A stretch of 64,000 bases of DNA from Chitinophagales bacterium (GCA_046329775.1 JAXLTX010000003.1:507153-571152); one strand, 5' to 3'. Counted from the stretch's first letter, positions 6,828-58,863 are shown. Translations and numbers: made by a program. Notes: generated by a model not told the origin, from the sequence alone.

Positions 6828-6842
6828 ATCTACAAAAATAAA

Positions 6843-6867
6843 AAATCCCGACCAATAGTCGGGATTT
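6843..6867 (-). terminator. Intrinsic terminator after the giant T9SS gene
   Basis: AAATCCCGAC-caata-GTCGGGATTT with a T-tract on the minus strand. Confidence 0.8.
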
Positions 6868-6887
6868 AATTTTGTTATGACTGAAAA

Positions 6888-42714: not shown

Positions 42715-42749
42715 TTTGCAGATTAGAGGCGATGTTTAAAAATCAACTG

Positions 42750-42793
42750 CAAAAATACAGGACACTATATGAATGATTTATGATTTGAATCAT
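42750..42793 (-). promoter_or_regulatory. Crp/Fnr-type box (ATGAT-N4-ATCAT, 42780-42793) plus -7 element (TATTTTTG, 42750-42757)
   Basis: Perfect inverted arms around a 4-nt spacer; 22-nt gap to the -7 element. Confidence 0.75.
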
Positions 42794-43394: not shown

Positions 43395-43467
43395 GACATT
43401 AAGAAAAATTGCAATGTAATTTAATCCAAATATCACACAAATGCCGTTAATATTAAACAACCTAAAT

Positions 43468-43481
43468 ATGATTTATATCAT
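43468..43481. promoter_or_regulatory. Crp/Fnr-type box ATGAT-TTAT-ATCAT
   Basis: Perfect arms in the divergent crp/nos intergenic region; likely autoregulatory site. Confidence 0.7.
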
Positions 43482-43538
43482 GTTTTGAATTTTTCTACCA
43501 TCTAAATCCATTGGAAAAACAAGCCTTTTCGAGCTATT

Positions 43539-43582
43539 ATGACTGCAATCATAAATCTTTAAAAGTTATCTGTATAACCTTG
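43539..43582 (+). promoter_or_regulatory. Crp/Fnr-type box (ATGAC-TGCA-ATCAT, 43539-43552) plus -7-like TAACCTTG (43575-43582): nos promoter
   Basis: Same 22-nt gap as at 42750-42793. Confidence 0.72.
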
Positions 43583-43601
43583 CAGCATAAAATCAATTCA
43601 A

Positions 43602-44099
43602 ATGAAAAAGTTATTAATTATCCTAAGCATCTCTTCTTTAGCCGCATTCTTTACAGGATGCAATTCGAATCCGTCCAAAGAGGACTTCAGCACCAAAGAA
43701 GAAACCACAGAAACTCCGGCAGCCACCACGACGGAAAATGGCAACCCTTCTTATGACCCGAAAAGAGGAGAAGGTAAATTTACAAAAGTGGAACTGGGTG
43801 CCACACTGGATGCCGCTATGGCCACTTCCGGTGAGAAGGTGTATGGGGTAAAATGTTCTTCCTGCCACAAGACCACGGATGAGAAACTGGTGGGCCCCGG
43901 ATGGAAAGGCGTAACCACACGTCGTACCCCGGAATGGATCATGAATTTCATCACCAATACGGATGCCATGATTGATAAGGATCCTGCCGCACAGGCACAA
44001 CTGGAAATCTGTCTGGTAAGAATGCCGAACCAGAGTTTATCTGATGATGATGCAAGACATCTGCTTGAATTTATGCGCAAAAACGATGGCGTTAAATAA
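43602..44099 (+). CDS. Monoheme cytochrome c lipoprotein of the clade II nos cluster
   Basis: Lipobox FTGC; CSSCH heme motif; distal Met (VRMPNQ); immediately upstream of nosZ. Confidence 0.92.
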   Translation: MKKLLIILSISSLAAFFTGCNSNPSKEDFSTKEETTETPAATTTENGNPSYDPKRGEGKFTKVELGATLDAAMATSGEKVYGVKCSSCHKTTDEKLVGPGWKGVTTRRTPEWIMNFITNTDAMIDKDPAAQAQLEICLVRMPNQSLSDDDARHLLEFMRKNDGVK

Positions 44100-44129
44100 A
44101 ATAATTTGAATACACACTAAATCTAAGAA

Positions 44130-46121
44130 ATGAAAAAGATAAATCTAAATATGGCAGTATGCATCGCTATCATCACAGCGATGGCCATGACAGCCTGCAA
44201 ACCAAAGAACATCGGCAATGCGGTAAGTGCTGATGCTGCTGCAAAAGCATATGTGGCGCCCGGCAAATACGATGCTTTCTACAATTTTGTGAGTGGCGGA
44301 TTCAGCGGGCAGATGAGTGTATACGGCTTACCGAGCGGACGTTTATTAAGAGTGATTCCGGTATTCTCCGTGGACCCCGAAAAAGGCTGGGGGTACAGCG
44401 AAGAGACCAAACCTATGTTAAACACTTCTCATGGTTTTGTGCCTTGGGATGACCTGCACCATACAGAGTTATCACAAACCAATGGTGAAATCGACGGACG
44501 CTGGATCTTCGGCAATGCCAACAATACGCCGCGTGTGGCTCGTATCGATTTGAAAACATTCCGCACGGCAGAAATCATCGAGTTGCCAAACAGTGCCGGC
44601 AACCACTCTTCTCCTTTCATCACCGAAAATACTGAATATGTGGTGGCAGGTACTCGCTTCAGTGTTCCACCGGATAACGCAAACGGAGATATTCCAATCA
44701 ACACCTACAAGCAAAACTTTAAAGGCTACTTAAGCTTCATCAGCGTGGGCAAAGAAGATGGTAAAATGGATATCGCATTCCAGATTGAATGTCCGGGTGT
44801 GAATTTTGACTTAAGCCATGCAGGCAAAGGAAAATCGCACGGATGGTTCTTCTTCTCTTGTTACAATACAGAACAGGCCAACACCATGTTAGAGGTGAAT
44901 GCATCTCAAAAAGACAAAGACTTCATCATGGCGGTGAACTGGAAAAAAGCGGAAGAATACCTGAAAGCGGGTAAAGGCAAAAAAGTTCCTGCAAAATATG
45001 CTCACAACACCTACAGCGACAAAACACACAGTGCCACTTCTGAAATCAAGTCAGAGGTAACGGTGTTAAGCGCCAAAGAACTGAAAGATATCTGCTATTT
45101 CATTCCTTGTCCGAAATCACCACACGGTTGCGATGTGGATCCAACAGGTGAATACATCGTAGGCAGCGGTAAATTGGCTGCATTGATTCCGGTCTTCAGT
45201 TTTGACAAATTACAAAAAGCCATCGCTGCTAAGGACTTCGCAGGAGACTTCGATGGTATCCCTGTCGTCAAATATGAATCCGCCTTATATGGTGAAGTAC
45301 AGAAACCGGGCTTGGGACCTCTGCATACGGAATTTGACGGAAACGGAAATGCCTACACCTCTTTCTTCGTTTCTTCAGAAGTGGTAAAATGGAACATCAA
45401 GGACTTGAAAGTGATAGACCGCGTTCCGACTTATTACTCTGTAGGCCACTTATGTGTACCGGGCGGAGACAGCAAGAAACCGTCTCCGAAATACCTGATT
45501 GCGTATAACAAGATTACCAAAGACAGATACCTTCCAACTGGTCCTGAATTGTCTCAAAGTGCTCAATTGTATGATATCAGCGGAGATAAGATGCAACTGA
45601 TTCTCGACTTCCCGACCATCGGTGAACCACACTATGCACAGGCTGTACCGGCGGAAGTGATCAAAGGAAATTCAGTAAAAATATTCAAGATTGAAGAAAA
45701 CGGAAATCCTTATGCTTCTAAAGGAGAAGGGGCATCCAAAGTAGTAAGAGAAGGTAATAAGGTACATGTATACATGACCTCTATCCGCTCTCACTTCTCA
45801 CCGGACAACATTGAAGGTATCAGAATGGGCGACGAAGTTTACTTCCATGTAACCAACTTAGAACAAGACTGGGACGTACCTCATGGCTTTGCCGTAAAAG
45901 GCGCCAACAATGGTGAGTTGCTCATCATGCCGGGAGAAACACAAACGCTGAAATGGGTACCGGACAGAGTGGGCATGTTCCCGATGTATTGTACCGATTT
46001 CTGCAGTGCGTTACATCAGGAAATGCAGGGATACGTGAGAGTATCACCGGCAGGCAGCAGCGTTCCCCTCACCTTCAGTACGGGCAAAAATCTACCTGCA
46101 GCCACTCCGGAAACAAAATAA
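44130..46121 (+). CDS. nosZ: Sec-dependent (clade II) nitrous-oxide reductase
   Basis: VSGGFSGQ, DDLHH, GNHSS, PKSPHG, PLHTEF, VGHL, EPHYA (CuZ His); CuA motif HGF...CTDFCSALHQEM; no Tat RR; lipobox MTAC. Confidence 0.97.
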   Translation: MKKINLNMAVCIAIITAMAMTACKPKNIGNAVSADAAAKAYVAPGKYDAFYNFVSGGFSGQMSVYGLPSGRLLRVIPVFSVDPEKGWGYSEETKPMLNTSHGFVPWDDLHHTELSQTNGEIDGRWIFGNANNTPRVARIDLKTFRTAEIIELPNSAGNHSSPFITENTEYVVAGTRFSVPPDNANGDIPINTYKQNFKGYLSFISVGKEDGKMDIAFQIECPGVNFDLSHAGKGKSHGWFFFSCYNTEQANTMLEVNASQKDKDFIMAVNWKKAEEYLKAGKGKKVPAKYAHNTYSDKTHSATSEIKSEVTVLSAKELKDICYFIPCPKSPHGCDVDPTGEYIVGSGKLAALIPVFSFDKLQKAIAAKDFAGDFDGIPVVKYESALYGEVQKPGLGPLHTEFDGNGNAYTSFFVSSEVVKWNIKDLKVIDRVPTYYSVGHLCVPGGDSKKPSPKYLIAYNKITKDRYLPTGPELSQSAQLYDISGDKMQLILDFPTIGEPHYAQAVPAEVIKGNSVKIFKIEENGNPYASKGEGASKVVREGNKVHVYMTSIRSHFSPDNIEGIRMGDEVYFHVTNLEQDWDVPHGFAVKGANNGELLIMPGETQTLKWVPDRVGMFPMYCTDFCSALHQEMQGYVRVSPAGSSVPLTFSTGKNLPAATPETK

Positions 46122-46208
46122 TAACTCTTGTTTGATCCTTAATAGTGGAACAGGTGAATGAAAGCCTGTTCCATTTTTTTTGAATCTTCAATTTTTAAAA
46201 TACAAGCC

Positions 46209-47231
46209 ATGCAAAACAATCAATTAAATCTCTGGATCAGGATCGCAGTGGCAATTTGCGGACTTGCTTTATTTGCAGTCTTATTCTTACCCATCTGGAG
46301 AATCGACCTCGCCGCACCGCAATATCCGGAAGGGCTACGCATGCTGATTTATGCCAATAAACTGGGCGGAGATGTAGAAATCATCAATGGACTCAACCAC
46401 TATATCGGGATGAAAACCTTGCATGCGGAAGATTTTATAGAATTCAGTGTATTAACCTATATTATAGGTGTCTATGCCTTATTATTTCTTATTGTTGCAG
46501 CTATCGGAAACAGAAAATTATTATATGCCATGTTCGGACTGTTTGCCGCTTTCGGCGTTCTGGCCATGGTGGATTTCTGGCGATGGGAATACAACTACGG
46601 ACACAACCTTGACCCTAAAGCAGCCATTGTCGTTCCCGGAATGGCTTATCAGCCGCCGCTCATCGGTTTCAAACAACTGCTTAATTTCGGTGCATACTCC
46701 ATTCCGGATATCGGCGGATGGATCTTCATCGGAGTCGGTGTCATACTGATAGTTTGTGTAATCATCGAAGCGAGGGGTACAATTAAATTGAAAAAATCAG
46801 GCTCCCTGACTACAGTAATATTGGGTCTCCTGACACTCACCCTATTCTCTTCCTGTTCGGCACAACCCAAACCGGTAAGGATAGGAATTGACCAGTGCGA
46901 CCACTGCAAGATGACTGTCAGCGACGCACGTTTTCCGGCAGAGATTCTTACCAAAAAAGGTAAAATCTATATTCTGGATGACATCCATTGTGTGCTTGGA
47001 CTTCTGAAAGAAAAACCGGAAATAAAAAAAGAGATAAAAGATATCTTTCTGAGTGATTACACGGGAAATCATTCCTTCATTAATGCTTCCGCTGCACATC
47101 TGATAAAAAGCGTTGAGCTAAGAAGTCCGATGGGCGGCAATATCGCTGCGTTCTCCAACATAGACAGCATGAATATTGTAATGGAAACATTTAAAGCGGA
47201 AAGCGTTATATGGAATGACATCATTCAATGA
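46209..47231 (+). CDS. nosL: NosB-like membrane domain fused to NosL copper chaperone
   Basis: WRIDLAAPQYPEGL, NGLNHYIGMK, YGHNLDP N-terminal domain; CDHCKM and SPMGGN NosL motifs. Start set at 46209. Confidence 0.85.
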   Translation: MQNNQLNLWIRIAVAICGLALFAVLFLPIWRIDLAAPQYPEGLRMLIYANKLGGDVEIINGLNHYIGMKTLHAEDFIEFSVLTYIIGVYALLFLIVAAIGNRKLLYAMFGLFAAFGVLAMVDFWRWEYNYGHNLDPKAAIVVPGMAYQPPLIGFKQLLNFGAYSIPDIGGWIFIGVGVILIVCVIIEARGTIKLKKSGSLTTVILGLLTLTLFSSCSAQPKPVRIGIDQCDHCKMTVSDARFPAEILTKKGKIYILDDIHCVLGLLKEKPEIKKEIKDIFLSDYTGNHSFINASAAHLIKSVELRSPMGGNIAAFSNIDSMNIVMETFKAESVIWNDIIQ

Positions 47232-48463
47232 TTCTCATGAAAATTCTGATTCGATATATAACACTCCTCTTCATTCTGCCGGCATTTGGTGCATCTTATC
47301 AGGTTGACATAAAACATAGCAGCATTCAGCAAGTGATTGACAGATCTTCAGATGGCGATACCATATGGGTGCCAGCAGGAACATATCATGAAAGGAATCT
47401 CCTCATCAATAAAGCCATTACATTGAAAGGAATCGACCATCCGACACTGGACGGCGAAAGCAAATATGAAATCATCTCTATAAAATCCAATCATGTAACT
47501 ATTGATGGATTCAAGATCATACACTCAGGAAGAGGAACTCTGGAAGATCCTGCCGGCATCAAGATTTATGACGGAAGAAACGTGACCATCATCAATAATA
47601 TCCTGGAAGATAATTTCTTCGGCATTTATACGCAATACGGAAAAAACTGTGTCATCAAGAATAACACCTTAAAGTCTTTTGCTGTGGCAGAGCAACAAAT
47701 CGGCAACGGTATCCATTGCTGGAAGTGCGACAGTATGCAGATTATCGGCAATAAGATTAGCGGACACCGGGATGGCATCTACTTTGAATTTGTCACCAAT
47801 TCCATCATATGGAGAAACATCTCCACCAAAAACATACGTTACGGCTTGCATTTCATGTTCTCCAACAACGACGCCTACATCACCAATGTATTCAAGAATA
47901 ATGGCGCCGGTGTCGCCGTTATGTTTACACATGGCGTGAAGATGTTCAACAACCTTTTTGAAGAAAACTGGGGTGATGCCGCGTACGGTTTACTGTTGAA
48001 AGAAATTTCGGACAGCTACATGGATGGCAACCGTTTTATCAAAAATACCAGCGGAATATTTATGGAAGGTGTCAGCCGCGTACAGATGCAGGATAATCTC
48101 TTCCAGAACAACGGTTGGGCCATGAAGGTCCAGGCCAGTTGCATGGACATCACGGTGACCAGAAATAATTTCATCAGCAATACCTTTGACGTAGGCACGA
48201 ACGGTTCTCTGGTTCTGAACACCTTCAACGGCAACTATTGGGATAAATACGAAGGCTATGATCTGAATAAAGACAAACTCGGAGACGTTCCCTTCAGACC
48301 TGTCAGCCTTTTTTCCATGATTCTGGAAAAAATGCCGCCTGCCATGATGCTGTTCCGGAGTTTCATGGTGACCATCCTGGATAAGACAGAAAAGATAATC
48401 CCGAGCATCACACCGGAAAACCTGAAAGACGACTCCCCATTAATGAAAGCGCTACCCTTATGA
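47228..48463 (+). CDS. nosD: Nitrous-oxide reductase maturation protein NosD
   Basis: Beta-helix repeats; GNGIHCW, HRDGIYFEF, RYGLHFMFS, GNYWD. Confidence 0.95.
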   Translation: MILMKILIRYITLLFILPAFGASYQVDIKHSSIQQVIDRSSDGDTIWVPAGTYHERNLLINKAITLKGIDHPTLDGESKYEIISIKSNHVTIDGFKIIHSGRGTLEDPAGIKIYDGRNVTIINNILEDNFFGIYTQYGKNCVIKNNTLKSFAVAEQQIGNGIHCWKCDSMQIIGNKISGHRDGIYFEFVTNSIIWRNISTKNIRYGLHFMFSNNDAYITNVFKNNGAGVAVMFTHGVKMFNNLFEENWGDAAYGLLLKEISDSYMDGNRFIKNTSGIFMEGVSRVQMQDNLFQNNGWAMKVQASCMDITVTRNNFISNTFDVGTNGSLVLNTFNGNYWDKYEGYDLNKDKLGDVPFRPVSLFSMILEKMPPAMMLFRSFMVTILDKTEKIIPSITPENLKDDSPLMKALPL

Positions 48464-49173
48464 TCACCGTATCAAATGTGATAAAGAAATTTGGCAAACT
48501 GGCCGCGCTCGATGACGTTTCCATCGACTGCAAGAGCACGGAATGCATTGCCCTGATTGGGCCGAACGGCAGCGGAAAGACCACGCTGATCAAAAGCATA
48601 CTGGGCATGGTGGTTCCTGACAAAGGCACCATCCTGTTCAATGAAAGAAATATTGCAAACGACTGGACATACCGCAGCCAAATCGGCTATATGCCGCAAA
48701 TCGGAAGATACCCCGAAAACATGACCATAGGACAGGTATTCGAAATGATGAAAAGCATCCGGAAAGATGATGATACGCAGCTGGATGAAGAATTATATGT
48801 TGAATTCGGATTGGATAAGCTATCCGACAAAAGGATGGGTACCTTGTCCGGCGGAACCCGGCAGAAAGTGAGCGCCACGCTTGCCTTCATGTTCAATCCG
48901 GATGTGTTGATACTCGACGAACCCACGGCTGGTTTGGACCCCGTGTCTTCTGAAATCCTTAAGGAAAAAATCATCCGTGAAAAAGAGAAAGGGAAACTGG
49001 TACTCGTCACCTCCCACATCCTGAGTGAACTGGATGACCTGGTGACGCATGTCATCTTTATGCAGGACGGGAAACTGAAATTCCATAAATCCATAGAAGC
49101 ATTGCGTAACGAAACGGGAGAAGTAAAATTATCTAAGGCGATTGCCAGCATCATGTTAAACGCAGCACATTGA
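48460..49173 (+). CDS. nosF: ABC transporter ATPase NosF
   Basis: GPNGSGKT, LSGG, ILDEP; located between nosD and nosY. Confidence 0.93.
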   Translation: MITVSNVIKKFGKLAALDDVSIDCKSTECIALIGPNGSGKTTLIKSILGMVVPDKGTILFNERNIANDWTYRSQIGYMPQIGRYPENMTIGQVFEMMKSIRKDDDTQLDEELYVEFGLDKLSDKRMGTLSGGTRQKVSATLAFMFNPDVLILDEPTAGLDPVSSEILKEKIIREKEKGKLVLVTSHILSELDDLVTHVIFMQDGKLKFHKSIEALRNETGEVKLSKAIASIMLNAAH

Positions 49174-49937
49174 AAAAGATTATAAAATTTGTCATCATCG
49201 ATATCCTCAGAAATAAGATTGTTCTGGTGTATACTTTATTCCTGCTGATTACCTCCTTAAGTGTCTTTAATCTGGAAGACAATACTGCCAAAGGGCTGTT
49301 GAGTTTACTGAACCTCATCCTGTTTATTGTCCCTTTGGTTTCCATCATTTTTTCCACCATTTACATCTACAACAGCGCGGAATTCATTGAACTCCTCGTC
49401 AGCCAGCCGCTGCAACGCAAGAACATCTGGTTGAGCCTGTTTTTCGGACTTGCCGGCTCCATGGTGCTGGCGTTCTTCATCGGCGCAGGCATCCCGATAT
49501 TGCTGTATGAGGCATCCCCCACCGGTCTGATGATGCTGGGCATAGGATGCATCATTACCGTCATCTTCGTGGCCATCGCATTTCTTACGACGGTGAACAC
49601 GCGGGATAAGGCAAAAGGAATCGGCACCGCAATCTTGTTGTGGCTGTATTTCGCCCTGCTGTTTGACGGTCTCGTTCTGTTCATCCTGTTCCAGTTCTCC
49701 GACTATCCGCTGGAAAAGGCGGTGGTCGTCATCAGTGCCCTCAATCCAATTGACCTCGGAAGAATACTGATCCTGTTGCGGCTGGATGTATCCGCACTGA
49801 TGGGTTACACCGGTGCCGTGTTCAAGGATTTTTTCGGCACCAATGTGGGACTCGTTGTCGCCTTTACAACGCTGCTGCTCTGGTGTGTACTTCCTATAGG
49901 ATTATCTGTTCTCAAATTCAGAAAAAAAGACTTATGA
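49170..49937 (+). CDS. nosY: ABC transporter permease NosY
   Basis: Six-TM ABC-2 type; SQPLQR, NPIDLGR; TTG start overlapping nosF. Confidence 0.9.
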   Translation: MKKIIKFVIIDILRNKIVLVYTLFLLITSLSVFNLEDNTAKGLLSLLNLILFIVPLVSIIFSTIYIYNSAEFIELLVSQPLQRKNIWLSLFFGLAGSMVLAFFIGAGIPILLYEASPTGLMMLGIGCIITVIFVAIAFLTTVNTRDKAKGIGTAILLWLYFALLFDGLVLFILFQFSDYPLEKAVVVISALNPIDLGRILILLRLDVSALMGYTGAVFKDFFGTNVGLVVAFTTLLLWCVLPIGLSVLKFRKKDL

Positions 49938-49984
49938 TGAAATTTTATCTGCACGCCGTGCGATGAATTTAAAAATGAATATCT

Positions 49985-50359
49985 ATGAAAAAGGATATTA
50001 AAAACAGGGCCGATATCGAATTGTTAGTGGATACCTTCTACGACAGGGTCAGGAATGACAAAATCATCGGTTATTTCTTTACAGATATTGTAAATATGAA
50101 CTGGAAAAAACATCTGCCGGCCATGTACAATTTCTGGGAGAACATCGTCTTCTTTACGGGAAATTATGAAGGCAATCCTTTAACCCTGCATCAGCACCTC
50201 AACAGGATTACCAATATTAACAAGAAGCATTTCAACCGATGGAACAAACTGTTCATCGCCACTACCGATGAATTATTCGAGGGAGAGAAGGCCACATTGC
50301 TGAAAAACAAAGCAATCAGCATCTCTTCAGTGATACAAAAGAATCTTTTCAAAAAATAA
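49985..50359 (+). CDS. Group III truncated hemoglobin
   Basis: DIELLVDTFYDRVR, HLPAMYNFWE, Y.GNP...H, HFNRWNKLF..T.DELFEG. Confidence 0.9.
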   Translation: MKKDIKNRADIELLVDTFYDRVRNDKIIGYFFTDIVNMNWKKHLPAMYNFWENIVFFTGNYEGNPLTLHQHLNRITNINKKHFNRWNKLFIATTDELFEGEKATLLKNKAISISSVIQKNLFKK

Positions 50360-50387
50360 AATTTTCAAAACCTTAAAAACAACTCCA

Positions 50388-51119
50388 ATGGATACACAAA
50401 ATAAGACAATAGGCGAAATGGTAGCGCAAGACTACCGCACAGCAGCTGTTTTCAAAAAACATAAGATTGATTTCTGTTGCAAAGGCAACCGCAGCATCCA
50501 GCAGGTATGTGAAGAAAAGAAACTGGATGTCAACATGCTCACAGAAGAATTGGATTCCGTGACGAAACCCATGGAGAGCAATGTGATTGACTTCAACTCC
50601 TGGCCAATGGATCTGCTGACAGATTATATCGAAAAGAAGCACCACCGTTATGTGGAAGAGAACATTCCTGTACTCCTGCAATACCTGAATAAATTATGTA
50701 AGGTGCATGGACCACAACACCCCGAATTGTTTGAAATCAACAGGGAATTCAACGAATGCGCAGGCGCACTGAGCGCTCACATGAAAAAGGAGGAACTCGT
50801 ATTGTTTCCCTATATCCGCAAGATGGTGAAGACCATGCTTGCACGTCAGGAAATGGGACAGGCACCGTTTGGCACCGTTGAAAACCCCATCCACATGATG
50901 ATGCACGAACACGACACGGAAGGCGAACGCTTCAGGAGAATCGCCCTGCTGAGCAATGACTATACGCCGCCGGCAGATGCCTGCAATACCTACCGGGTGG
51001 CCTACAACCTGCTGAAGGAATTTGAGAATGATCTGCATACCCACATTCACCTGGAAAACAACATCCTTTTCCCGAAAGCGGTAAAAACTGAATCTTTACT
51101 TAACACATCTGTCGCCTGA
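50388..51119 (+). CDS. ric: Iron-sulfur cluster repair di-iron protein (RIC/YtfE/ScdA)
   Basis: IDFCCKG, HHRYV, HMKKEE.VLFP, MMHEHD, HIHLENNILFP. Confidence 0.95.
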   Translation: MDTQNKTIGEMVAQDYRTAAVFKKHKIDFCCKGNRSIQQVCEEKKLDVNMLTEELDSVTKPMESNVIDFNSWPMDLLTDYIEKKHHRYVEENIPVLLQYLNKLCKVHGPQHPELFEINREFNECAGALSAHMKKEELVLFPYIRKMVKTMLARQEMGQAPFGTVENPIHMMMHEHDTEGERFRRIALLSNDYTPPADACNTYRVAYNLLKEFENDLHTHIHLENNILFPKAVKTESLLNTSVA

Positions 51120-51172
51120 AATCATTAAATTCAATGTTGATATGTCTTCACTATCCAACCTAAAACATCCTT

Positions 51173-52897
51173 ATGAACGGTGGTGAAATCATTGCTAAAG
51201 TCTTGCAGAATCACGGAGTCAAATTTTTATTTACCCTTTGTGGCGGACACATCTCCCCTATTTTTGTCAGTGCAGAAAACCTGGGTATCCGCGTTATTGA
51301 TACCAGACATGAAGTGAATGCCGTGTTTGCGGCGGATGCAGTGTCGCGCTTGACAGGTGTTCCCGGTGTTGCAGCGGTGACTGCCGGCCCCGGATTGACA
51401 AACACCATTACGGCGGTAAAGAATGCATATCTCGCACAGTCACCCTTGATATTATTGGGTGGCGGGGCGGCGACCATTTTAAAAGGCAGGGGATCTCTCC
51501 AGGATATCGACCAGATGAGCATGATGAAACCGAACGTAAAATGGGCCGCTCGCATCACCAAAGTGAAAGATATTATCCCCACCCTGGAAAAGGCATTTGC
51601 CGTAGCACAGGACGGCATTCCCGGACCTGTCTTTGTAGAATGTCCGATTGATACCCTCTACAACGAAGAATTGGTGCGGGAATGGTATGGCGCAAAAAGC
51701 AAAGATGTTCCGCCACGCAACATGCAGGAACGCGTCATACAGTGGTATATCAACCGGCATGCGAGAAAACTGTTTGAAGGAAAAGACAATGTTCAGTTCA
51801 ATCAACCTCACTCGTTTTCAACGCCCTCACACAATTCTTCCGATGTTGAGAAAGTGATTTCCAGGCTAAAACAGGCTAAGAGCCCTCTGATGCTGGTGGG
51901 CAGCGGCGCCATGATGCAGCCGCACAAAGCAGATGAACTGGCGAAAGCCGTACTGCAATTAGGCATTCCCGTCTACCTCAGCGGTATGGGACGTGGATTG
52001 CTTGGCAAAGACCATCCATTGCAGATGCGCCACAAACGCAAGGAAGCCATCAAGGAAGCTGATTTAATAATACTCGCCGGTGTTCCCAATGACTTCCGTT
52101 TGGATTATGGCAACCACATTGGGCATCGTCCCTTTGTTTCCATCAATCGCAGCAGGGAGGATTTGAATAAGAACAAAAGGCCTAGCCTTGGCATACTGGC
52201 AGACCCGCAGAATTTTCTGATAGACCTGGCAAAAAAATACAGCGGCAATTATTCCGAATGGATGCAAAAATTGCGCAGCAATGACAATGCACGCGAAAAG
52301 CATATTGACGAACAGGCTGCAAATGACCTGAACGGCATCAATCCGGTTAAATTGTTCAGGGCTTTGGATACGATACTTGACCACAATACCATCTTAGTGG
52401 CAGACGGCGGCGACTTTGTGGCCACATCCGCCTACACCTTAAAGCCGCGTGCACCACTTTCCTGGCTCGACCCGGGCGTATTCGGCACACTGGGAGTCGG
52501 CGCCGGTTTTGCATTGGGCGCCAAACTGGTGTTTCCTGAAAAAGATGTCTGGATCATATACGGCGATGGTAGTGCCGGATATAGCTTAGTGGAATACGAC
52601 ACATTTGTAAGACATAAGCTGCCGGTCATTTCCCTCATCGGAAACGATGCCTGCTGGGCTCAGATAGCAAGAGATCAGGTGGATTTTTTAAAGAGTGACT
52701 GTGCGGTTCAACTGGAACATTCCAATTATGAAATGATCGGCAAGGCATTCGGGGCGGAGGGTGTCCGTGTGGAAAATCAGGCGGCATTTGAAACCGCTGC
52801 GAAAGAAGCAAAAGAAAAAAGCAGAAACGGCATTCCGTATATCATCAACGCCATCATAGGTAAATCAGATTTTAGAAAAGGGTCCATTTCCATGTAA
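51173..52897 (+). CDS. ThDP-dependent enzyme, ILVBL/HACL2-like (putative 2-hydroxyacyl-CoA lyase)
   Basis: [52 protein letters not shown]...ND ThDP motif; motif wording follows the ILVBL lineage rather than IlvB. Confidence 0.8.
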
Positions 52898-52907
52898 AAA
52901 AAATAAG

Positions 52908-53459
52908 ATGACAACATCAGGGTTATTACAAAAAGAAAATACGGCATTAATAGTCATAGATGTGCAGGAAAGACTGATGCCCGTCATACACCACAGCGAA
53001 CAGATTTTTGCAAATGTCAATCGACTGATTAAAGGCGCGGAGGTGCTGCATATTCCGCTGCTGGTGACGGAACAATACCCGAAAGGATTGGGAAATACCT
53101 GTAAGGAAATTGAATTGCCGGAAAATACCGATACCATAGAAAAGATGTGTTTCAGTTGCATGCAATCGGATGAAGTTCTGCAACAGCTAAAACAATTGAA
53201 TCTACGTTCTCTTATCCTATGCGGAGTGGAATCGCATATATGCGTATTTAAAACAGCCTTAGAGGCATTGGAAAAAGGATTTGAAGTACATGTGGTGGCA
53301 GATGCGGTCTCCTCCAGAACCCCTGAAAATAAGGCAATAGCACTTGAGAGGCTCCGGCAATCTGGCGTCTTTATCGTTTCCACGGAAATGGTTCTATTCC
53401 AGCTACTGGATGAAGCCGGCACAGATACGTTTAAAGCCATCAGCAAAATCATCAAATAA
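52908..53459 (+). CDS. Isochorismatase-family hydrolase (YcaC/ISOC-like)
   Basis: IDVQERL, TEQYPKGLG, K.CFS, GVESHICV, DAVSSR. Confidence 0.9.
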   Translation: MTTSGLLQKENTALIVIDVQERLMPVIHHSEQIFANVNRLIKGAEVLHIPLLVTEQYPKGLGNTCKEIELPENTDTIEKMCFSCMQSDEVLQQLKQLNLRSLILCGVESHICVFKTALEALEKGFEVHVVADAVSSRTPENKAIALERLRQSGVFIVSTEMVLFQLLDEAGTDTFKAISKIIK

Positions 53460-53467
53460 ACTCGCAC

Positions 53468-55237
53468 ATGGAAGCCAGATGTCTTTTTGATTTGTTAACG
53501 ATACAGAAAGAAAGGAATCCAGACAAGCCTTTTCTCTCTTCCAAAGAAAACAAGAAATGGGTCACTCATTCTTTTGCTCAAGTACAGCAGATGGCGGACC
53601 GTGTTAGCCAACTCCTGTTGAATCTGGGATTGAAGAAGGGAGACACCATTGCCCTCATTTCCACCAACCGTCCGGAATGGAATTTCATAGACCTGGGCGC
53701 ACAACAGACCGGCATCATTGTTGTGCCGATGTATCCGACGATTTCTGAAAAGGATTATGAATATATCTTTCAGGATGCCGCCATCAGCTATGCATTCGTG
53801 AGCGATGAAGACATCTACCATAAGGTGGAACCATTGCTGAAAAAGATACCTTCATTTAAGGATGTGTATGCATTCGACGAGATTCCGATGGTAAAGAAAC
53901 TTTCGGAAATGCTTCCTGCACAGGCTGATGCGGCAGCCATCCATTCTGTAAAAGAAACGGTAGCGGAAGCGGATATCGCCACCATCATCTATACTTCCGG
54001 CACCACCGGAAATCCCAAAGGCGTGATGCTGACCCACAATAACATCGTAAGCAACATCAAAGGCGTGAAAGAAGTGACACCCTTTGGCGAAGGAGAAAAG
54101 GCTTTGAGTTTTCTTCCCTTATGCCACAGTTTTGAGCGCATGGTCTTTTACGCCTATCTTTCTTATGGCATACACATCCACTATGCAGAAAACCTGGAAA
54201 CCATCGGCGAAAACCTGCTGGAGGTGAAACCCTACTGTTTCACCACAGTGCCGCGCATGCTGGAAAAGGTATACGACAAGATCATTGCCAAAGGCACCGA
54301 TTTGACGGGCATCAAAAAGAAATTATTTTTCTGGGCCGTGGAAGTGGGTGCCGAATATGAAATCGGTAAAGAGAGGAATTGGTGGTATGAAAAGAAATTG
54401 GCACTTGCACGAAAGCTCATCTTCAGCAAATGGAAAGAAGCACTCGGCGGCAATGTGCATTTCATCATTACCGGCGCGGCTGCCATGCAACCGCGGCTCA
54501 TCACCCTCTTTACCGCAGCAGGCATTGACATCATTGAGGGATACGGTCTGACGGAAACATCTCCGGTTTTATGCAGCAACCGCATTGAAGAGAAACAGCG
54601 CTGCATAGGCACGGTGGGCATGCCTTTGCCGAATGTGATTATTGAACTGGCGGATGACGGAGAGATATTGGCAAAAGGTCCGAATATCATGAAAGGATAC
54701 TATCATCAGCAAGCCTTCACCGAGGAGGTGATTGATGCGAACGGCTGGTTCCATACCGGCGATATCGGGACCTGGGTTTCACAAAACGGATATCAGTTCT
54801 TAAAGATCACAGACCGAAAAAAGGAATTATTCAAGACCGCAGGCGGAAAATATGTGGCGCCTCAGGTGATTGAAAACAAGATGAAAGAGAGTCCTTACAT
54901 AGAGCAAATCATGATAGTGGGAGGCGATGACAAAAAATTCGTATCGGCACTGATAGTACCTTCCTTCCTGCAAGTGACCTCATGGGCAAAACAAAACGGT
55001 TTATCGTTTAAGACGACTCAGGAACTTGTCTCCAATAAGAAGATACACGACCTGATCCACAAAGACGTCCACAAATTCAATCATGATTTCGGACACTGGG
55101 AACAGGTTAAAAAGTTTGTATTGCTGCCGGAAGAATGGTCGGTGGAAAGCGGTGAACTGACACCTACCATGAAACCCAAACGCAAAGTCATCAATGAACG
55201 TTATAAGGCCGTCATTGAAAGCATGTATCACGTATGA
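53468..55237 (+). CDS. fadD: Long-chain fatty acid-CoA ligase
   Basis: YTSGTTGNPKG, FLPLCHSFER, EGYGLTETSP, TGDIG, DRKKELFKTAGGKYVAP, ELTPTMK. Confidence 0.92.
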   Translation: MEARCLFDLLTIQKERNPDKPFLSSKENKKWVTHSFAQVQQMADRVSQLLLNLGLKKGDTIALISTNRPEWNFIDLGAQQTGIIVVPMYPTISEKDYEYIFQDAAISYAFVSDEDIYHKVEPLLKKIPSFKDVYAFDEIPMVKKLSEMLPAQADAAAIHSVKETVAEADIATIIYTSGTTGNPKGVMLTHNNIVSNIKGVKEVTPFGEGEKALSFLPLCHSFERMVFYAYLSYGIHIHYAENLETIGENLLEVKPYCFTTVPRMLEKVYDKIIAKGTDLTGIKKKLFFWAVEVGAEYEIGKERNWWYEKKLALARKLIFSKWKEALGGNVHFIITGAAAMQPRLITLFTAAGIDIIEGYGLTETSPVLCSNRIEEKQRCIGTVGMPLPNVIIELADDGEILAKGPNIMKGYYHQQAFTEEVIDANGWFHTGDIGTWVSQNGYQFLKITDRKKELFKTAGGKYVAPQVIENKMKESPYIEQIMIVGGDDKKFVSALIVPSFLQVTSWAKQNGLSFKTTQELVSNKKIHDLIHKDVHKFNHDFGHWEQVKKFVLLPEEWSVESGELTPTMKPKRKVINERYKAVIESMYHV

Positions 55238-55253
55238 ACACCATGAATAATAA

Positions 55254-55283
55254 CAAACGCCGAAGAAATCTCTTCGGCGTTTG
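55254..55283. terminator. Bidirectional terminator
   Basis: 13-bp stem CAAACGCCGAAGA-aatc-TCTTCGGCGTTTG. Confidence 0.85.
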
Positions 55284-55305
55284 CTAATTAAACCAATCTT
55301 AAATC

Positions 55306-55872
55306 TTATTTTGCCGGTGGGAGCAACACACCGTCTATTACATGGATGATTCCGTTGCTGGCCGGAATGGAGGCAACAATCATTGCCGTTCCGTTGAGCA
55401 TAATTTTTCCGTCTTTCTTGCTGACCTTCACATTACCGCCATTCACCATTCCGAGTGACTGACCATCCTGCAATGATTCAGCACTTAAAGAACCTACGTA
55501 AACATGATACTGAAGAATATCAGCCAGGTCGTTCTTCTTTTCAGGTTTCAATAATCCCTCTACCGTACCGGCAGGTAATTTATCAAAAGCGGCATTGGTA
55601 GGTGCAAATACGGTAAAAGGTCCGGCATTGCTTAAGGCATCAACCAATTCTGCCGCTTTGACGGCCGTTACCAGCGTCGTGTGGTCTTTACTGCCTACTG
55701 CAACCTGTACCACATTCTTTGCAGATTCATCATCCAGCACCGCAGATTGTCCAGCACCCTGCTCCTGCTCGGTTGCATCAGATGTACCGCTATCTGCCGT
55801 GCCCTTGTTATTACAGGAAATCATCAGAAAGCTCATGCAAGCGGTTAATAAGATTATTACATTCTTTTTCAT
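55306..55872 (-). CDS. Fasciclin (FAS1) domain lipoprotein
   Basis: Lipobox MISC; TVFAPTNAAF (H1), ILQYHV, SNGIIHVIDGVL (H2). Start set at MKKNV. Confidence 0.92.
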   Translation of the reverse strand: MKKNVIILLTACMSFLMISCNNKGTADSGTSDATEQEQGAGQSAVLDDESAKNVVQVAVGSKDHTTLVTAVKAAELVDALSNAGPFTVFAPTNAAFDKLPAGTVEGLLKPEKKNDLADILQYHVYVGSLSAESLQDGQSLGMVNGGNVKVSKKDGKIMLNGTAMIVASIPASNGIIHVIDGVLLPPAK

Positions 55873-55907
55873 AATGGTGTGTTTTGACATTTAAAAATAA
55901 ATACATA

Positions 55908-55983
55908 CAATACTACCATTATTGTCAAAAGATATTTATGCGTGGAATCATACTTTTCCGGAAATAAAGATGACAGTTATCAG
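55908..55983 (-). promoter_or_regulatory. Two Crp/Fnr-like boxes (55938-55951, 55970-55983) plus -7-like TAGTATTG (55908-55915)
   Basis: ATGCG-TGGA-ATCAT and ATGAC-AGTT-ATCAG; the proximal box is again 22 nt from the -7-like element. Confidence 0.6.
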
Positions 55984-56032
55984 GGTTTTTAAAATTACAG
56001 GATGAAAGATATTCGAAAAGTGGTAAAATAAA

Positions 56033-56060
56033 AAAGCCCCACATTGCTGTGAGGCTTTTC
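56033..56060 (-). terminator. Terminator after tRNA pair
   Basis: AAGCCTCAC-agcaat-GTGGGGCTT (G-U pair) followed by a T-tract on the minus strand. Confidence 0.65.
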
Positions 56061-56068
56061 TTGGTTAG

Positions 56069-56143
56069 TCGGGATGGCTGGATTCGAACCAACGACCTCC
56101 TGGTCCCAAACCAGGCATTCTAACCGGACTGAACTACATCCCG
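56069..56143 (-). tRNA. tRNA-Pro(TGG)
   Basis: Acceptor CGGGATG/CATCCCG; anticodon arm CCTGG-TT-TGG-GA-CCAGG; GTTCGAATC T-loop; CCA not encoded. Confidence 0.95.
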
Positions 56144-56159
56144 TAGTTGTTGTTTGCTG

Positions 56160-56246
56160 CGGTGAGGGAGGGATTCGAACCCTCGGTACAGTTACCCGTA
56201 CGTCAGTTTAGCAAACTGGTGGTTTCAGCCACTCACCCACCTCACC
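56160..56246 (-). tRNA. tRNA-Ser(GCT)
   Basis: Acceptor GGTGAGG/CCTCACC; loop TT-GCT-AA; long variable arm; GGTTCGAATCC. Confidence 0.93.
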
Positions 56247-56277
56247 TCCTTTTTTCTTTATAAGAACTTTGGGACGG

Positions 56278-56285
56278 CAAAGATA
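56278..56285 (-). promoter_or_regulatory. -7 element (TATCTTTG) for the tRNA pair
   Basis: Exact TAnnTTTG about 32 nt upstream of tRNA-Ser. Confidence 0.6.
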
Positions 56286-56409
56286 GGATTTTTAAAGAAC
56301 TTTGCAAATATAAAACAAAAAATGTGCGCAGATATTACTTTAATAAATTGATAACATCTTTTGTTTGCCAGAAAATCCCGATGAAGGGCATTCCTGTTTG
56401 CATATTTTA

Positions 56410-57846
56410 TTATAGACTCAACTCAATTCGTTTTTTCAATTCTTCTACTGAATCTCTGAATTCCTCATCTGTGTCAATAAGATTGCGTACTGCCTGACAG
56501 GAATGAATCACCGTACTGTGGTCTCTTCCTCCGAATTGCTGTCCGATTGCTTTTAAAGAAGACTTAGTATATTCTTTTGCAAAAAACATGGATAATTGTC
56601 TGGCCTGCACGAACTGACGCTTACGGGTAGGTTCTTTCAATTTTTCCACAGGAACTTCGAAGAAATCGCATACTGTCTTTTGTATCATGTCCAATGAAAT
56701 TTCTTTCGTGGCATGTTTTACGAAATTGATGACGGTTTTCTTTGCCAGCTCCAGCGTGATGTCCTGTCTGTTCAGGGTTGCCTGTGCCAGGATGGAGGTC
56801 AATACACCTTCCAGTTCACGGACATTGGTTTTAATATTGGTGGCGATGAAACGTGTAACATCCTCGTGCATCTCGATACCGTCTGCATGCAGTTTCTTTT
56901 GCAGTATGCTGATGCGGGTATCGTAATCAGGAGTCTGCAAATCGGTCGTCAGGCCCCATTTGAAGCGCGACAACAAACGTTCTTCCATATTTTCCAGATC
57001 TTTCGGAGCCCTGTCTGAGGTCAGAATCAACTGCTTGCCGTTTTGGTGCAGGTGATTGAAGATATGGAAAAAGATATCCTGTGTTTTCGTCTTATTGGCA
57101 AAGAACTGAATATCATCAATAATCAATACATCTATCTGTTGATAGAAATGGATGAAATCATTGGTGCTGTTATCTTTCAGTGCAGTAAGGAACTGACTGG
57201 TGAATTTTTCGGAACTCACATACAATACCGTTTTGGTAGAGTTGTGTACTTTAATGTAATTTCCGATGGCCTGTCCCAAATGGGTTTTACCCAAACCTAC
57301 TCCTCCGTATATCACCAAAGGGTTAAAGGCAGTGCCCCCCGGAGACTTGGCAACCGCCATGCCCGCACTGCGTGCAAATTTGTTACAGTCACCTTCTATA
57401 AAAGAATCAAAAGTATAGTTAGGATTCAGTTGTGAATCAACGTGTATTTTCTTAAGACCGGGAATCACAAAAGGATTCTTCACCATAGGGCTTGAGAAGA
57501 CCGCAGGCATGGATACTTCGTTGGTACCGTAGACACCTTCTCTGTGATTCGGCACATCGATGGTTTTAGGTTCTGATTTCACACCATTGGATGCATCGAC
57601 CAGAATTCTATATTCCAGTTTTGCATCTTCTCCCAATTCTCTCTTGATGGTTTTGCGTAGTAAGGTAACGTAGTGTTCTTCCAGCCATTCGTAAAAGAAT
57701 TGACTTGGGACCTGAATGGTTAAACTTTTACCGTCGAGTTTAACGGGTTTAATCGGTTCGAACCATGTTTTATAGCTTTGTACATTGATGTTATCTTTGA
57801 TAATTTTGAGACAATTTTCCCACACAAGTTCATGCTTGTTCTTCAT
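56410..57846 (-). CDS. dnaA: Chromosomal replication initiator DnaA
   Basis: YTFDSFIEG, FNPLVIYGGVGLGKTHL, LIIDDIQF, TSDRAP, NVRELEG, FGGRDHSTVIH. Confidence 0.98.
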   Translation of the reverse strand: MKNKHELVWENCLKIIKDNINVQSYKTWFEPIKPVKLDGKSLTIQVPSQFFYEWLEEHYVTLLRKTIKRELGEDAKLEYRILVDASNGVKSEPKTIDVPNHREGVYGTNEVSMPAVFSSPMVKNPFVIPGLKKIHVDSQLNPNYTFDSFIEGDCNKFARSAGMAVAKSPGGTAFNPLVIYGGVGLGKTHLGQAIGNYIKVHNSTKTVLYVSSEKFTSQFLTALKDNSTNDFIHFYQQIDVLIIDDIQFFANKTKTQDIFFHIFNHLHQNGKQLILTSDRAPKDLENMEERLLSRFKWGLTTDLQTPDYDTRISILQKKLHADGIEMHEDVTRFIATNIKTNVRELEGVLTSILAQATLNRQDITLELAKKTVINFVKHATKEISLDMIQKTVCDFFEVPVEKLKEPTRKRQFVQARQLSMFFAKEYTKSSLKAIGQQFGGRDHSTVIHSCQAVRNLIDTDEEFRDSVEELKKRIELSL

Positions 57847-57927
57847 ACGCTCTATTCGGTTTTTAGAAATTTAAAATTGACTGCTATCGACGAAACTAAG
57901 TTGAGGAAAAATTCTCTAATAAAAAAA

Positions 57928-58863
57928 TTATTTTTCTATTGATTTTTTATCAACAATTACAGTTTGAGAGTTTGATAACTTTTTTCTGAAACTTTTTTCA
58001 AAATAATATTCCAGCTGTCCGAATTGCACGCCGGCCCATCCTACCTGATTGATTAAGACTGTTTTTCCGTCCTTATTTTTTTCGCTGACAGGTGCATCCA
58101 GGAAGGTATGAGTATGCCCTCCGATGATCAGATCAATGTTGGCAGTCTGTTGTGCCAACATGATATCCGATACTTTGGCGTTGTCGTATTTATAGCCCAG
58201 ATGAGACAGGCAAATAATCAGGTGACACTTCTCTTTGTACTTGAGAATGTCCGCCTGTTCCTGCACACATTTCACAGGGTCGAGGTATCTTGTTTGTGCG
58301 TATAATTTATCCGGCACCAGTCCGTCCAGTTCCACCCCACATCCGGTAATGCCTATCTTTAAGGTTCCTTTTTTCAACACAACATGCTTGTGCACCTTAC
58401 CTTCCACCGGTGTTCCCGTAAAATCATAATTGCAATTTACGAAGGGAAAATCCGCCCGGCTTATCTGCCTGGCCAACGTGTCAATTCCTCCGTCAAAATC
58501 ATGATTACCGATAGTGGCGGCATCGTACCCCATCTTGTTCATCAGGTCTATTTCCAGATCGCCGTGAAAGAAATTGAAATAGGGTGTTCCCTGAAAGATG
58601 TCGCCGGCATCCAACACCAATACGTTATCCTTTTGCCTGCGAATATTTTGTATGATTGCGGAGCGGTATTCCGCTCCGCCCAAGCCCGGATATTTCTTAT
58701 CATCTTCCGGAAAAGGTTCAATATGGCTGTGCACATCATTCGTATGCAGGATGGTAAGTTGCACTTGCGCTGCTGCTGCCAGCAAATCCAGCGGACTTGA
58801 AGCCATACCGACTACAGCACCGCCCAATACGGTATTGCTAATGAAACGTCTTCTACTTTGCAT
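57928..58863 (-). CDS. 5'-nucleotidase metallophosphatase subunit (Tat-like leader)
   Basis: SRRRFI leader; HTNDVHSH, LDAGD, GNHDFD, CLSHLG, GGHTH. Start set at MQSRRR (58863). Confidence 0.92.
   Translation of the reverse strand: MQSRRRFISNTVLGGAVVGMASSPLDLLAAAAQVQLTILHTNDVHSHIEPFPEDDKKYPGLGGAEYRSAIIQNIRRQKDNVLVLDAGDIFQGTPYFNFFHGDLEIDLMNKMGYDAATIGNHDFDGGIDTLARQISRADFPFVNCNYDFTGTPVEGKVHKHVVLKKGTLKIGITGCGVELDGLVPDKLYAQTRYLDPVKCVQEQADILKYKEKCHLIICLSHLGYKYDNAKVSDIMLAQQTANIDLIIGGHTHTFLDAPVSEKNKDGKTVLINQVGWAGVQFGQLEYYFEKSFRKKLSNSQTVIVDKKSIEK

Follow-up and report, generated by a model that had tools for sequence, protein, structure and literature searches.

Conserved linkage of a putative HACL2-type 2-hydroxyacyl-CoA lyase to an ISOC-like hydrolase and an acyl-CoA ligase, downstream of the nitrous-oxide reductase genes of a Chitinophagales bacterium

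Introduction

What is a thiamine diphosphate (ThDP) enzyme that resembles an animal fatty-acid lyase doing at the end of a bacterial denitrification cluster? The question is raised by a 64,000-nucleotide stretch of DNA from an uncultured Chitinophagales bacterium (GCA_046329775.1, JAXLTX010000003.1:507153-571152; the whole stretch is called the window below), in which genes for such an enzyme, an isochorismatase-family hydrolase and an acyl-coenzyme A (CoA) ligase follow the nitrous-oxide reductase (nos) genes. A first-pass annotation, made from the sequence alone, had read the three genes as a module for the alpha-oxidation of fatty acids. That interpretation is partly supported here: the placement of the lyase and the linkage of the genes were upheld, while the substrate, the formyl-CoA step and the lipid rationale are inferred. 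At the sequence level, the view that a bacterial lyase of the HACL2 type shares a conserved module with a ligase and an ISOC-like hydrolase is supported, and the biochemical reading (alpha-oxidation of 2-hydroxy fatty acids, with the hydrolase acting on formyl-CoA) would be the best available model.

It was not until 2017 that HACL2 (ILVBL) was identified as a lyase of alpha-oxidation. Bacterial alpha-oxidation has been documented physiologically in myxobacteria and, to our knowledge, its enzymes are unassigned; the literature that could be searched yielded neither a bacterial HACL2/ILVBL counterpart nor an operon context for one. The three genes of the window are:

51173-52897 (+), ThDP enzyme of the ILVBL/HACL2 clade, putative 2-hydroxyacyl-CoA lyase, 574 aa (Pfam TPP_enzyme_N, TPP_enzyme_M and TPP_enzyme_C)
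52908-53459 (+), ISOC1/ISOC2/MAR1-like isochorismatase-family cysteine hydrolase, 183 aa (Pfam Isochorismatase, PF00857, 124 bits)
53468-55237 (+), COG1022/FadD11-like AMP-forming acyl-CoA ligase, 589 aa (AMP-binding and AMP-binding_C_3)

The lyase and hydrolase genes are separated by 10 bp and the hydrolase and ligase genes by 8 bp; the coordinates, strand and spacing first given for these open reading frames (ORFs) were all confirmed.

Identity of the ThDP enzyme

By its sequence relationships, the product of 51173-52897 belongs to the ILVBL/HACL2 clade and is a bacterial HACL2-type enzyme. In BLASTP comparisons it shares 43–48% identity with eukaryotic HACL2 proteins across about 575 residues (E-values 1e-166 to 0) but 24–26% with E. 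coli IlvI, the genome's own IlvB and E. coli Oxc (26% for Oxc), and on these alignments the likeness to ILVBL/HACL2 far exceeds chance. A maximum-likelihood tree of 68 sequences, which included the comparison with ILVBL, Oxc and IlvB proposed beforehand as a check, places the enzyme within a 28-sequence clade (SH-aLRT support 99) in which the four eukaryotic HACL2 sequences are all included. Outside this clade lie PRK05858-like enzymes, Oxc, IlvI, the genome's own IlvB, Gcl and PoxB. The enzyme groups with eukaryotic ILVBL/HACL2 and not with the acetolactate synthases, and the first-pass view that it resembles ILVBL/HACL2 rather than IlvB is borne out by the tree, the identities and the insert described below. 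An exhaustive search of 1.84 billion representatives recovered, just outside the lyase's own bacterial clade, proteins of 608–672 aa with 44–49% identity, the named members of which are eukaryotic (Trichinella HACL2, and the EukProt entries Ploeotia, Nonionella and Mastigamoeba).

The three-domain POX-family ThDP fold is evident from the TPP_enzyme_N/M/C matches, and the alignment shows the cofactor-activating Glu (Glu47, in the RHE motif) and the GDG...N motif for Mg/ThDP (YGDGS...GND). An insert of about 40 residues (window residues ~170–210, the "WY insert") lies where the Pyr domain gives way to the middle domain; it aligns with all four eukaryotic HACL2 sequences and is confined in the alignment to the HACL2 clade and its immediate sister group. 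It is missing from the shorter PRK05858-like representatives P0191, P0212, P0218 and P0231, is present in a partial version in P0178, and is missing from Oxc, IlvI, IlvB, Gcl and PoxB. All motifs originally quoted for the enzyme, including the WY insert, were found in the translation. Gln110 (in GSLQDIDQ) is conserved and aligns with human Q161 and AcHACL Q128, and the Ile at the AcHACL E493 position corresponds to human I554 and matches Trichinella NDARWSQIHRTQ, these columns being set by alignment, not structure. Human HACL2 has Q161 and I554 at the two active-site positions (PMC13327070, Table 1), and Glu493 is the catalytic, proton-relay residue of actinobacterial HACL. A C-terminal FRKGSISM motif, of the general form FR(K/D/E)GSIS, is common to the lyase and the HACL2 clade. 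The eukaryotic N-terminal membrane anchor is absent from the window protein, which begins at the catalytic domain; eukaryotic HACL2 sequences have 30–55 additional N-terminal residues, hydrophobic in most. Because this extension is lacking, the lyase is predicted to be soluble, and loss of the anchor is expected for a bacterial cytosolic form.

The best curated-model matches are to PRK05858 (409 bits, cut-off 587) and NF058623, actinobacterial 2-hydroxyacyl-CoA lyase (321 bits, cut-off 600), and the best solved-structure relative is an actinobacterial HACL (238 bits). The enzyme falls outside the actinobacterial HACL group, being below the NF058623 cut-off and having Ile in place of Glu493, and outside Oxc (TIGR03254, 200 bits vs 739; PRK09259, 224 bits vs 557). 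Acetolactate synthase (IlvB; acetohydroxyacid synthase, AHAS) was considered and rejected, with TIGR00118 scores of 241–247 bits against a cut-off of 538 and no ilvN, ilvC or ilvD nearby; the absence of these genes, noted in the first reading of the locus, was confirmed from the gene calls and the Pfam matches of the neighbours. A genuine IlvB gene is found elsewhere in the genome (contig C8, TIGR00118, 704 bits).

The enzyme might still be a carboligase of pyruvate or another 2-oxo acid, serving acetolactate or acetoin overflow under anoxia, with neighbours that are unrelated to it. Source annotations do label the family "acetolactate synthase-like", and in the mouse ILVBL has a part in forming dimethylglyoxal from pyruvate, to a greater extent under hypoxia (PMC11237006). 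We regard this as very improbable, given the scores far under the AHAS cut-offs, the true IlvB elsewhere, the low identity to IlvB/IlvI (24–26%), the lack of an adjacent ilvN or alsD, and the ligase fusions and perfect co-inheritance with the hydrolase reported in the next section, which argue for a CoA-ester pathway.

Conservation of the three-gene linkage

Whether the three genes belong together was examined in 80 loci from GTDB species genomes encoding a lyase relative (54–86% identity), with all flanking ORFs clustered. The only broadly recurring neighbours of the lyase are the hydrolase (48/80 loci) and the ligase (38/80 loci). Conservation of the linkage had been set beforehand as a check on the module, and it is seen for both partners, which are co-retained. 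Subsets also occur: about 12 loci have lyase–hydrolase pairs without the ligase, and there are lyase–ligase pairs without the hydrolase. In genomes G009 and G087 the hydrolase–ligase pair is intact and the lyase is 476 kb away or on another contig, with an insertion sequence (IS) element in G009 at the break between the lyase and the pair. The ligase orthologue of G009 is 62% identical to that of the window.

The ligase partner itself varies. A natural fusion of a FadD-like ligase to the lyase (1137–1152 aa) was found, and in locus L088 a MatB-like ligase begins directly past the lyase stop codon. On sequence classification, three different ligase families have been recruited independently, which supports a "CoA ester first" logic.

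Co-occurrence was assessed in 150 Chitinophagales genomes, sampled evenly. Of these, 23 have the lyase, and the hydrolase is found in all of those 23 and in none of the remaining 127 (Fisher p 1e-27, a value inflated by shared ancestry, as only 9 genera are involved). Co-retention holds where the two genes are unlinked (476 kb apart or on different contigs), and their presence and absence covary within three genera. Counted among the 23 is G020, in which a lyase variant with an insertion first missed the threshold; this orthologue (C24:17419-19224) matches in two pieces within one 640-aa frame, pointing to an additional insertion near residue 390.

In loci L089 and L090, a 128-aa 4HBT hotdog thioesterase gene (6516-6902) lies 98 bp upstream of an HACL2-clade lyase that has no adjacent ISOC gene, and the thioesterase may take the place of the ISOC hydrolase without being homologous to it. 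Loci lacking ISOC or the ligase were also inspected for a CoA-transferase, an aldehyde dehydrogenase or a formate dehydrogenase, and contain other, unrelated genes (beta-eliminating lyase, MFS transporter, PQQ propeller, fucosidase).

A few other neighbours were seen at smaller numbers of loci. Genes of the Beta_elim_lyase family (tryptophanase/tyrosine-phenol-lyase) adjoin the lyase or the lyase–ligase pair in two unrelated loci (L041 7740-9152; L051 9581-10966 and 11942-13396). A gene for a secreted GDPD-like phosphodiesterase is divergent and just upstream of the lyase in 12 loci (L016 5089-5970 (-) and 11 others), and one for a PI-PLC_X-domain protein is 3' of the lyase in L089/L090 (L089 8823-9845). 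The idea that these two form one recurring partner was rejected, as similarity between them is undetectable. Both have head-group phosphodiesterase folds, which hints at lipid catabolism.

The ISOC-like hydrolase

Asp18, Lys79 and Cys112 are invariant in 49 orthologues of the hydrolase and align with the same residues of 8rkz; because this triad is invariant, the protein is very probably an active cysteine hydrolase. In a ranking of PDB matches it scores 132 bits against 8rkz, 114 against C. elegans 2b34, 105 against 8rl0 and 66–72 against trypanosomatid MAR1, with PncA (47 bits) and YcaC (39 bits) below the ISOC/MAR1 matches. It is thus nearer to ISOC/MAR1 than to nicotinamidase, YcaC, RutB or EntB. 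A T(E/T)QY..LG motif is conserved between the hydrolase and its ISOC/MAR1 relatives, and all NCBIfam equivalog models score far below cut-off.

No substrate is assigned to ISOC1 or ISOC2 in the open literature searched, which also offered no link of isochorismatase or ISOC proteins to HACL or formyl-CoA. In human liver, ISOC1 has been detected in peroxisomes. An enzyme that hydrolyses formyl-CoA has been proposed and "has yet to be identified" (PMC9090294). Such a role for the hydrolase fits its tighter linkage to the lyase, and also the presence of the 4HBT thioesterase in L089/L090.

The order of events could be different, with the ISOC-like protein acting first as an amidase that frees the acid from an N-acyl lipid, a ceramide-like compound or a small 2-hydroxy amide before the ligase activates it. 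Amidase activity is the usual chemistry of Cys-type isochorismatase-family enzymes; the Asp-Lys-Cys triad is typical of nicotinamidase/carbamoylase-type amidases, and the ISOC–ligase pairs without an adjacent lyase in G009 and G087 would suit such an order. We nonetheless judge it quite unlikely. Lyase–ISOC pairs without a ligase are frequent, a hotdog thioesterase sits beside the lyase where the adjacent ISOC gene is missing, and the ligase is putatively of the long-chain type, whereas the amidases of the isochorismatase-like fold known to us take small substrates.

The acyl-CoA ligase

The best NCBIfam match of the ligase is FadD11 (322 bits against a cut-off of 950), and the AMP-binding core and AMP-binding_C_3 domain are both present. 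A structure search found no close solved relative. The enzyme is the third COG1022 paralogue of the genome, and the other two, 49–51% identical to it, are on contig C2; by this comparison the module ligase is a dedicated paralogue. The C2 genes form a tandem pair (G000 C2:68926-72446) and are presumably housekeeping long-chain ligases.

The nature of the ligase bears on the size of the substrate. A small acid such as lactate, glycolate, 2-hydroxybutyrate or oxalate could instead be converted to formyl-CoA and a short aldehyde or CO2, giving an Fe-S-free, radical-free route to formate under nitric oxide (NO) or anoxic stress. In L088 the ligase beside the lyase resembles malonyl/oxalyl-CoA synthetases, a hint that small acids are taken by some members of the clade; the closest relatives of known structure (actinobacterial HACL and HACL/S enzymes) use short substrates, and the genomic island described below holds NO-stress replacements (class II ribonucleotide reductase (RNR), RIC, globin). 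For the window enzyme, however, we give a small-acid substrate little credence, since its ligase resembles the COG1022/FadD11 long-chain type and has AMP-binding_C_3, the lyase has Ile, as in human HACL2, where the short-chain actinobacterial HACL has Glu493, and animal HACL2 favours long and very-long 2-hydroxyacyl-CoAs (PMC10398889).

Proposed pathway

The three genes would probably form an oxygen-independent "activate, cleave, release" module of the alpha-oxidation type. As far as sequence can indicate, its "activate and cleave" part is well supported; we infer the identity of the substrate and the role of the hydrolase, possibly as a formyl-CoA hydrolase. The ligase would first make the CoA thioester of a carboxylic acid hydroxylated at C2, of which a 2-hydroxy fatty acid of medium or long chain is the likeliest, as suggested by its family and by the fusions. 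The HACL2-type enzyme would then split the C1–C2 bond, by analogy with HACL2, which cleaves 2-hydroxyacyl-CoAs once CoA has been added (PMC10398889), to give formyl-CoA and an aldehyde one carbon shorter. Lastly, the ISOC-like hydrolase, as an obligate partner in the module, would most plausibly convert formyl-CoA to formate and CoA; this third step is speculative, and would close a three-enzyme CoA cycle.

A possible rationale is that the module could be an anoxic stand-in for O2-dependent dioxygenation of 2-hydroxy fatty acids. An Mpo1-like (PF06127) gene, homologous to that for the O2-dependent 2-hydroxy fatty-acid dioxygenase of yeast, is present in the same genome (G000 C8:523783-524238, locus L093), and such genes occur in 17/23 of the lyase-positive genomes and in 69/150 of the Chitinophagales genomes, often in two copies. 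More broadly, ISOC1/ISOC2/MAR1 hydrolases might be dedicated partners of HACL-type lyases and supply the formyl-CoA hydrolase that is missing from alpha-oxidation and from CoA-dependent oxalate breakdown, both in bacteria and, should the idea extend to them, in eukaryotes, for which the peroxisomal location of ISOC1 alongside HACL1 can be cited; the module in denitrifiers would then be an NO- or low-oxygen-induced, O2-independent replacement for Mpo1-type dioxygenation of 2-hydroxy fatty acids. We consider this wider proposal unlikely.

Several points weigh against the alpha-oxidation model. We know of no isochorismatase-family enzyme that acts as a thioesterase. The hydrolase is absent from 16/25 further lyase genomes that lack an adjacent copy, including cultured Cyclobacteriaceae and other lineages with only the lyase and ligase, and also from G369, so it is not universally needed; the strength of its co-occurrence with the lyase is overstated by common descent, as noted above. 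Genes for an aldehyde dehydrogenase, a fatty-acid 2-hydroxylase or a formate dehydrogenase are linked in none of the loci. The ligase is under every curated cut-off, so its chain-length preference is not given by the models, and the L088 ligase type and the dimethylglyoxal activity of mouse ILVBL, both discussed earlier, point elsewhere. Co-transcription with the nos genes, considered next, is a prediction from sequence.

Denitrification context and regulation

The features of the window upstream and immediately downstream of the module are:

42765-43460 (-), Crp/Fnr-family regulator, divergent from the nos cluster (Pfam cNMP_binding and HTH_Crp_2)
43602-44099 (+), cytochrome c, first gene of the co-directional cluster (Pfam Cytochrom_C)
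44130-46121 (+), clade II (Sec-dependent) nitrous-oxide reductase NosZ (TIGR04246, 938 bits, cut-off 625)
46144-46175 (+), hairpin and T-run directly 3' of nosZ, possible partial terminator or attenuator (12 pairs, TTTTTTTGAAT tail)
46158-47231 (+), nosL-like
47228-48463 (+), nosD
48460-49173 (+), nosF
49170-49937 (+), nosY (this and the three preceding ORFs overlap or abut)
49985-50359 (+), small truncated-globin-like protein (the 65%-identical L001 orthologue matches Bac_globin)
50388-51119 (+), RIC/YtfE-type di-iron Fe-S repair protein (TIGR03652, 241.5 bits, cut-off 204.7; ScdA_N and Hemerythrin)
51120-51172 (+), ric–lyase spacer, 53 bp, hairpin-free (sequence reading and terminator scan)
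55251-55286 (no strand assigned), strong bidirectional intrinsic terminator between the ligase and a convergent fasciclin gene (16-pair stem, 7 G-C pairs)

Twelve co-directional (+) genes span 43602-55237, among them, in order, those for cytochrome c, NosZ, the NosL-like protein, NosD, NosF, NosY, the globin-like protein, RIC/YtfE, the lyase, the hydrolase and the ligase. The nosL-like, nosD and nosF genes were named from Pfam NosL, NosD/Beta_helix and ABC ATPase matches, and nosY from its position and orthology to cluster 6; the window's globin-like protein itself has no Pfam match. The terminator scan picked up the site on the minus strand, where it has a T-rich tail, and its plus-strand palindrome was read directly from the sequence.

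All gaps from nosZ through the ligase are 53 bp or less, and TGAY-N4-ATCA boxes occur at 42781, 43469 and 43540, only upstream of the cluster. No promoter recognisable as its own precedes the module. The module is probably transcribed as the tail of the cytochrome c–nosZLDFY–globin–ric cluster under a Crp/Fnr-type regulator, and its expression would be expected under low-oxygen or N-oxide conditions. Read-through from ric and nos had been suggested in the first-pass annotation. There is indeed no terminator in the 53-bp spacer between ric and the lyase, by sequence reading and by scan, which fits the suggestion; a hairpin does lie directly 3' of nosZ. A sigma-70 promoter scan gave sites no more numerous than in shuffled sequence, the model being ill-suited to Bacteroidota, and a riboswitch scan of 42000-58500 found no TPP or other riboswitch, only two tRNAs.

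The nos neighbourhood had been treated as incidental, a view that has to be revised, as it recurs across three families and at an unrelated fusion locus. Genes for N-oxide metabolism lie within 6 kb of the lyase in 14/80 loci and in at least three layouts: nosZLDFY–globin(–ric) upstream; Rrf2–norC–norB–nirK downstream; and Rrf2 with a class II RNR upstream, with norD/norQ beyond. The ligase–lyase fusion gene is directly 3' of genes for qNor, NnrS/DUF1858 and an Rrf2 regulator, and the association is also seen in one Cyclobacteriaceae locus. Among the 150 Chitinophagales genomes, NosZ is encoded in 18/23 with the lyase vs 51/127 without it (p 0.001), and in six genomes from three families nosZ and the lyase gene are on the same contig and no more than 20 kb apart. 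The B12-dependent class II RNR genes behind Rrf2 adjoin the module in L001 (3983-5989), L020 (10092-12098) and L021 (~3982 onward), and the enzyme looks like an NO-resistant substitute for the tyrosyl-radical class I type, within an NsrR-like regulon.

Within 250 bp ahead of the lyase gene, a TGAY-N4-RTCA pair of Crp/Fnr-like half-sites is enriched about 5-fold and occurs in about 7 lineages, and exact ATGAC-N4-ATCAT boxes precede the lyase in L020 and L074. The strict ATGAY-N4-ATCAT box gives only 2 upstream matches, so the enrichment is limited to the looser pattern, and the link of the lyase to a Crp/Fnr regulon is therefore only suggestive. Other elements were seen in the same region. An CTATATTCAC element stands at a fixed distance, about 25–35 bp upstream of the lyase start, in many loci (L016, L018, L022-L039, L044, L053, L066, L068, L077 and others) and resembles a variant of the Bacteroidota -7 promoter box (TAnnTTTG). 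The copy in the window is degenerate (GATATGTCTTCAC), which fits a dependence of its lyase gene on upstream transcription. Perfect palindromes (ACGACAAATTTGTCGT; CGTTGTAAACATAAACAACG) are present upstream of the lyase in L004, L005, L007 (~90 bp) and L011-L013, and may be operators for a regulator, perhaps Rrf2.

It is possible, if somewhat unlikely in our estimation, that the nos/NO neighbourhood has no functional meaning, and that the module rides on a mobile denitrification island or reflects shared ancestry and is expressed independently. Loci with NO-related genes come mainly from the closest relatives (L001-L021), the majority of the 80 loci lack such genes, 5/23 lyase genomes lack nosZ, and a promoter-like TATATTCAC element precedes the lyase in many loci. 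A passive origin is harder to reconcile with the differing layouts, with nos upstream in one, Rrf2–norCB–nirK downstream in another and Rrf2–RNR upstream in a third, and with their spread over three families (f1, f15 and f25), a Cyclobacteriaceae locus and the fusion near qNor–NnrS–Rrf2; the Crp/Fnr-like boxes directly upstream of the lyase in several lineages, and the open path from ric into the lyase in the window, also speak against it.

The lyase is rare, being found in 4/300 Bacteroidota genomes, which counts against a general housekeeping role in membrane lipids. The original rationale, that Bacteroidota are rich in 2-hydroxy fatty acids and sphingolipids, is weakened by this figure and by the 23/150 seen in Chitinophagales.

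Downstream of the module are the fasciclin gene, two tRNA genes (56069-56246 (-)) and dnaA (56410-57846 (-)). The cumulative GC skew tops out at about 55 kb and then declines, with the turn near 55–56 kb; from this and the position of the tRNAs and dnaA, the nos–lyase cluster seems to abut the replication origin. The convergent fasciclin gene (55306-55890 (-)) has a Crp/Fnr-like box, TGACAGTTATCA, at 55971-55982, about 81 bp upstream of its start, and ATGATAGATGTCAT lies 93 bp upstream of the L003 orthologue; the fasciclin gene may be in the same low-oxygen regulon as nos.

Discussion

The window lyase shares with eukaryotic HACL2, the endoplasmic reticulum lyase of 2-hydroxy fatty-acid alpha-oxidation, its clade, the ~40-aa insert, the Gln and Ile positions and the C-terminal motif, and HACL2 likewise acts past a CoA-addition step (PMC10398889). 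It differs in having no N-terminal anchor, in being operonic with its own ligase and an ISOC-like hydrolase, and in its position within a denitrification cluster. With the actinobacterial HACL/PRK05858 enzymes it has in common the fold, a GGHI motif and the conserved Gln, but those enzymes have no insert, lie outside the HACL2 clade, and are distinguished by Glu493 where the window enzyme has Ile.

The logic of the module recalls the HACL1/Oxc systems (Oxc–Frc, and the plant series AAE3, OXC, a "formyl-CoA hydrolase" and FDH), in which an acid is converted to a CoA ester, a ThDP enzyme frees formyl-CoA, and this is then disposed of. Unlike Oxc–Frc, no Frc-type CoA-transferase was seen among the neighbours, and a cysteine hydrolase stands in that position. 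That hydrolase has the Asp-Lys-Cys triad and the T(E/T)QY..LG motif of ISOC1/ISOC2/MAR1 but, unlike the eukaryotic proteins, it is operonic and, in the Chitinophagales sample, strictly co-inherited with an HACL2-type lyase. The net result would be the same as that of yeast Mpo1, a 2-hydroxy fatty acid shortened by one carbon (PMC10398889), but Mpo1 is an unrelated protein that depends on Fe2+ and O2, whereas the HACL route is O2-independent.

The perfect co-inheritance of lyase and ISOC hydrolase in that sample, the ligase fusions and the repeated embedding in denitrification/NO islands are new here. ISOC1 and ISOC2 are conserved human proteins, and the co-inherited HACL2–ISOC pair gives a testable lead on their role, with the lyase–hydrolase–ligase set providing a simple three-protein system that bears on ISOC function and on formyl-CoA hydrolysis. 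The repeated placement of the module beside nos, nor and Rrf2 genes points to an unrecognised accessory function in the N-oxide respiration or NO stress of clade II N2O reducers, such as those of wastewater and freshwater.

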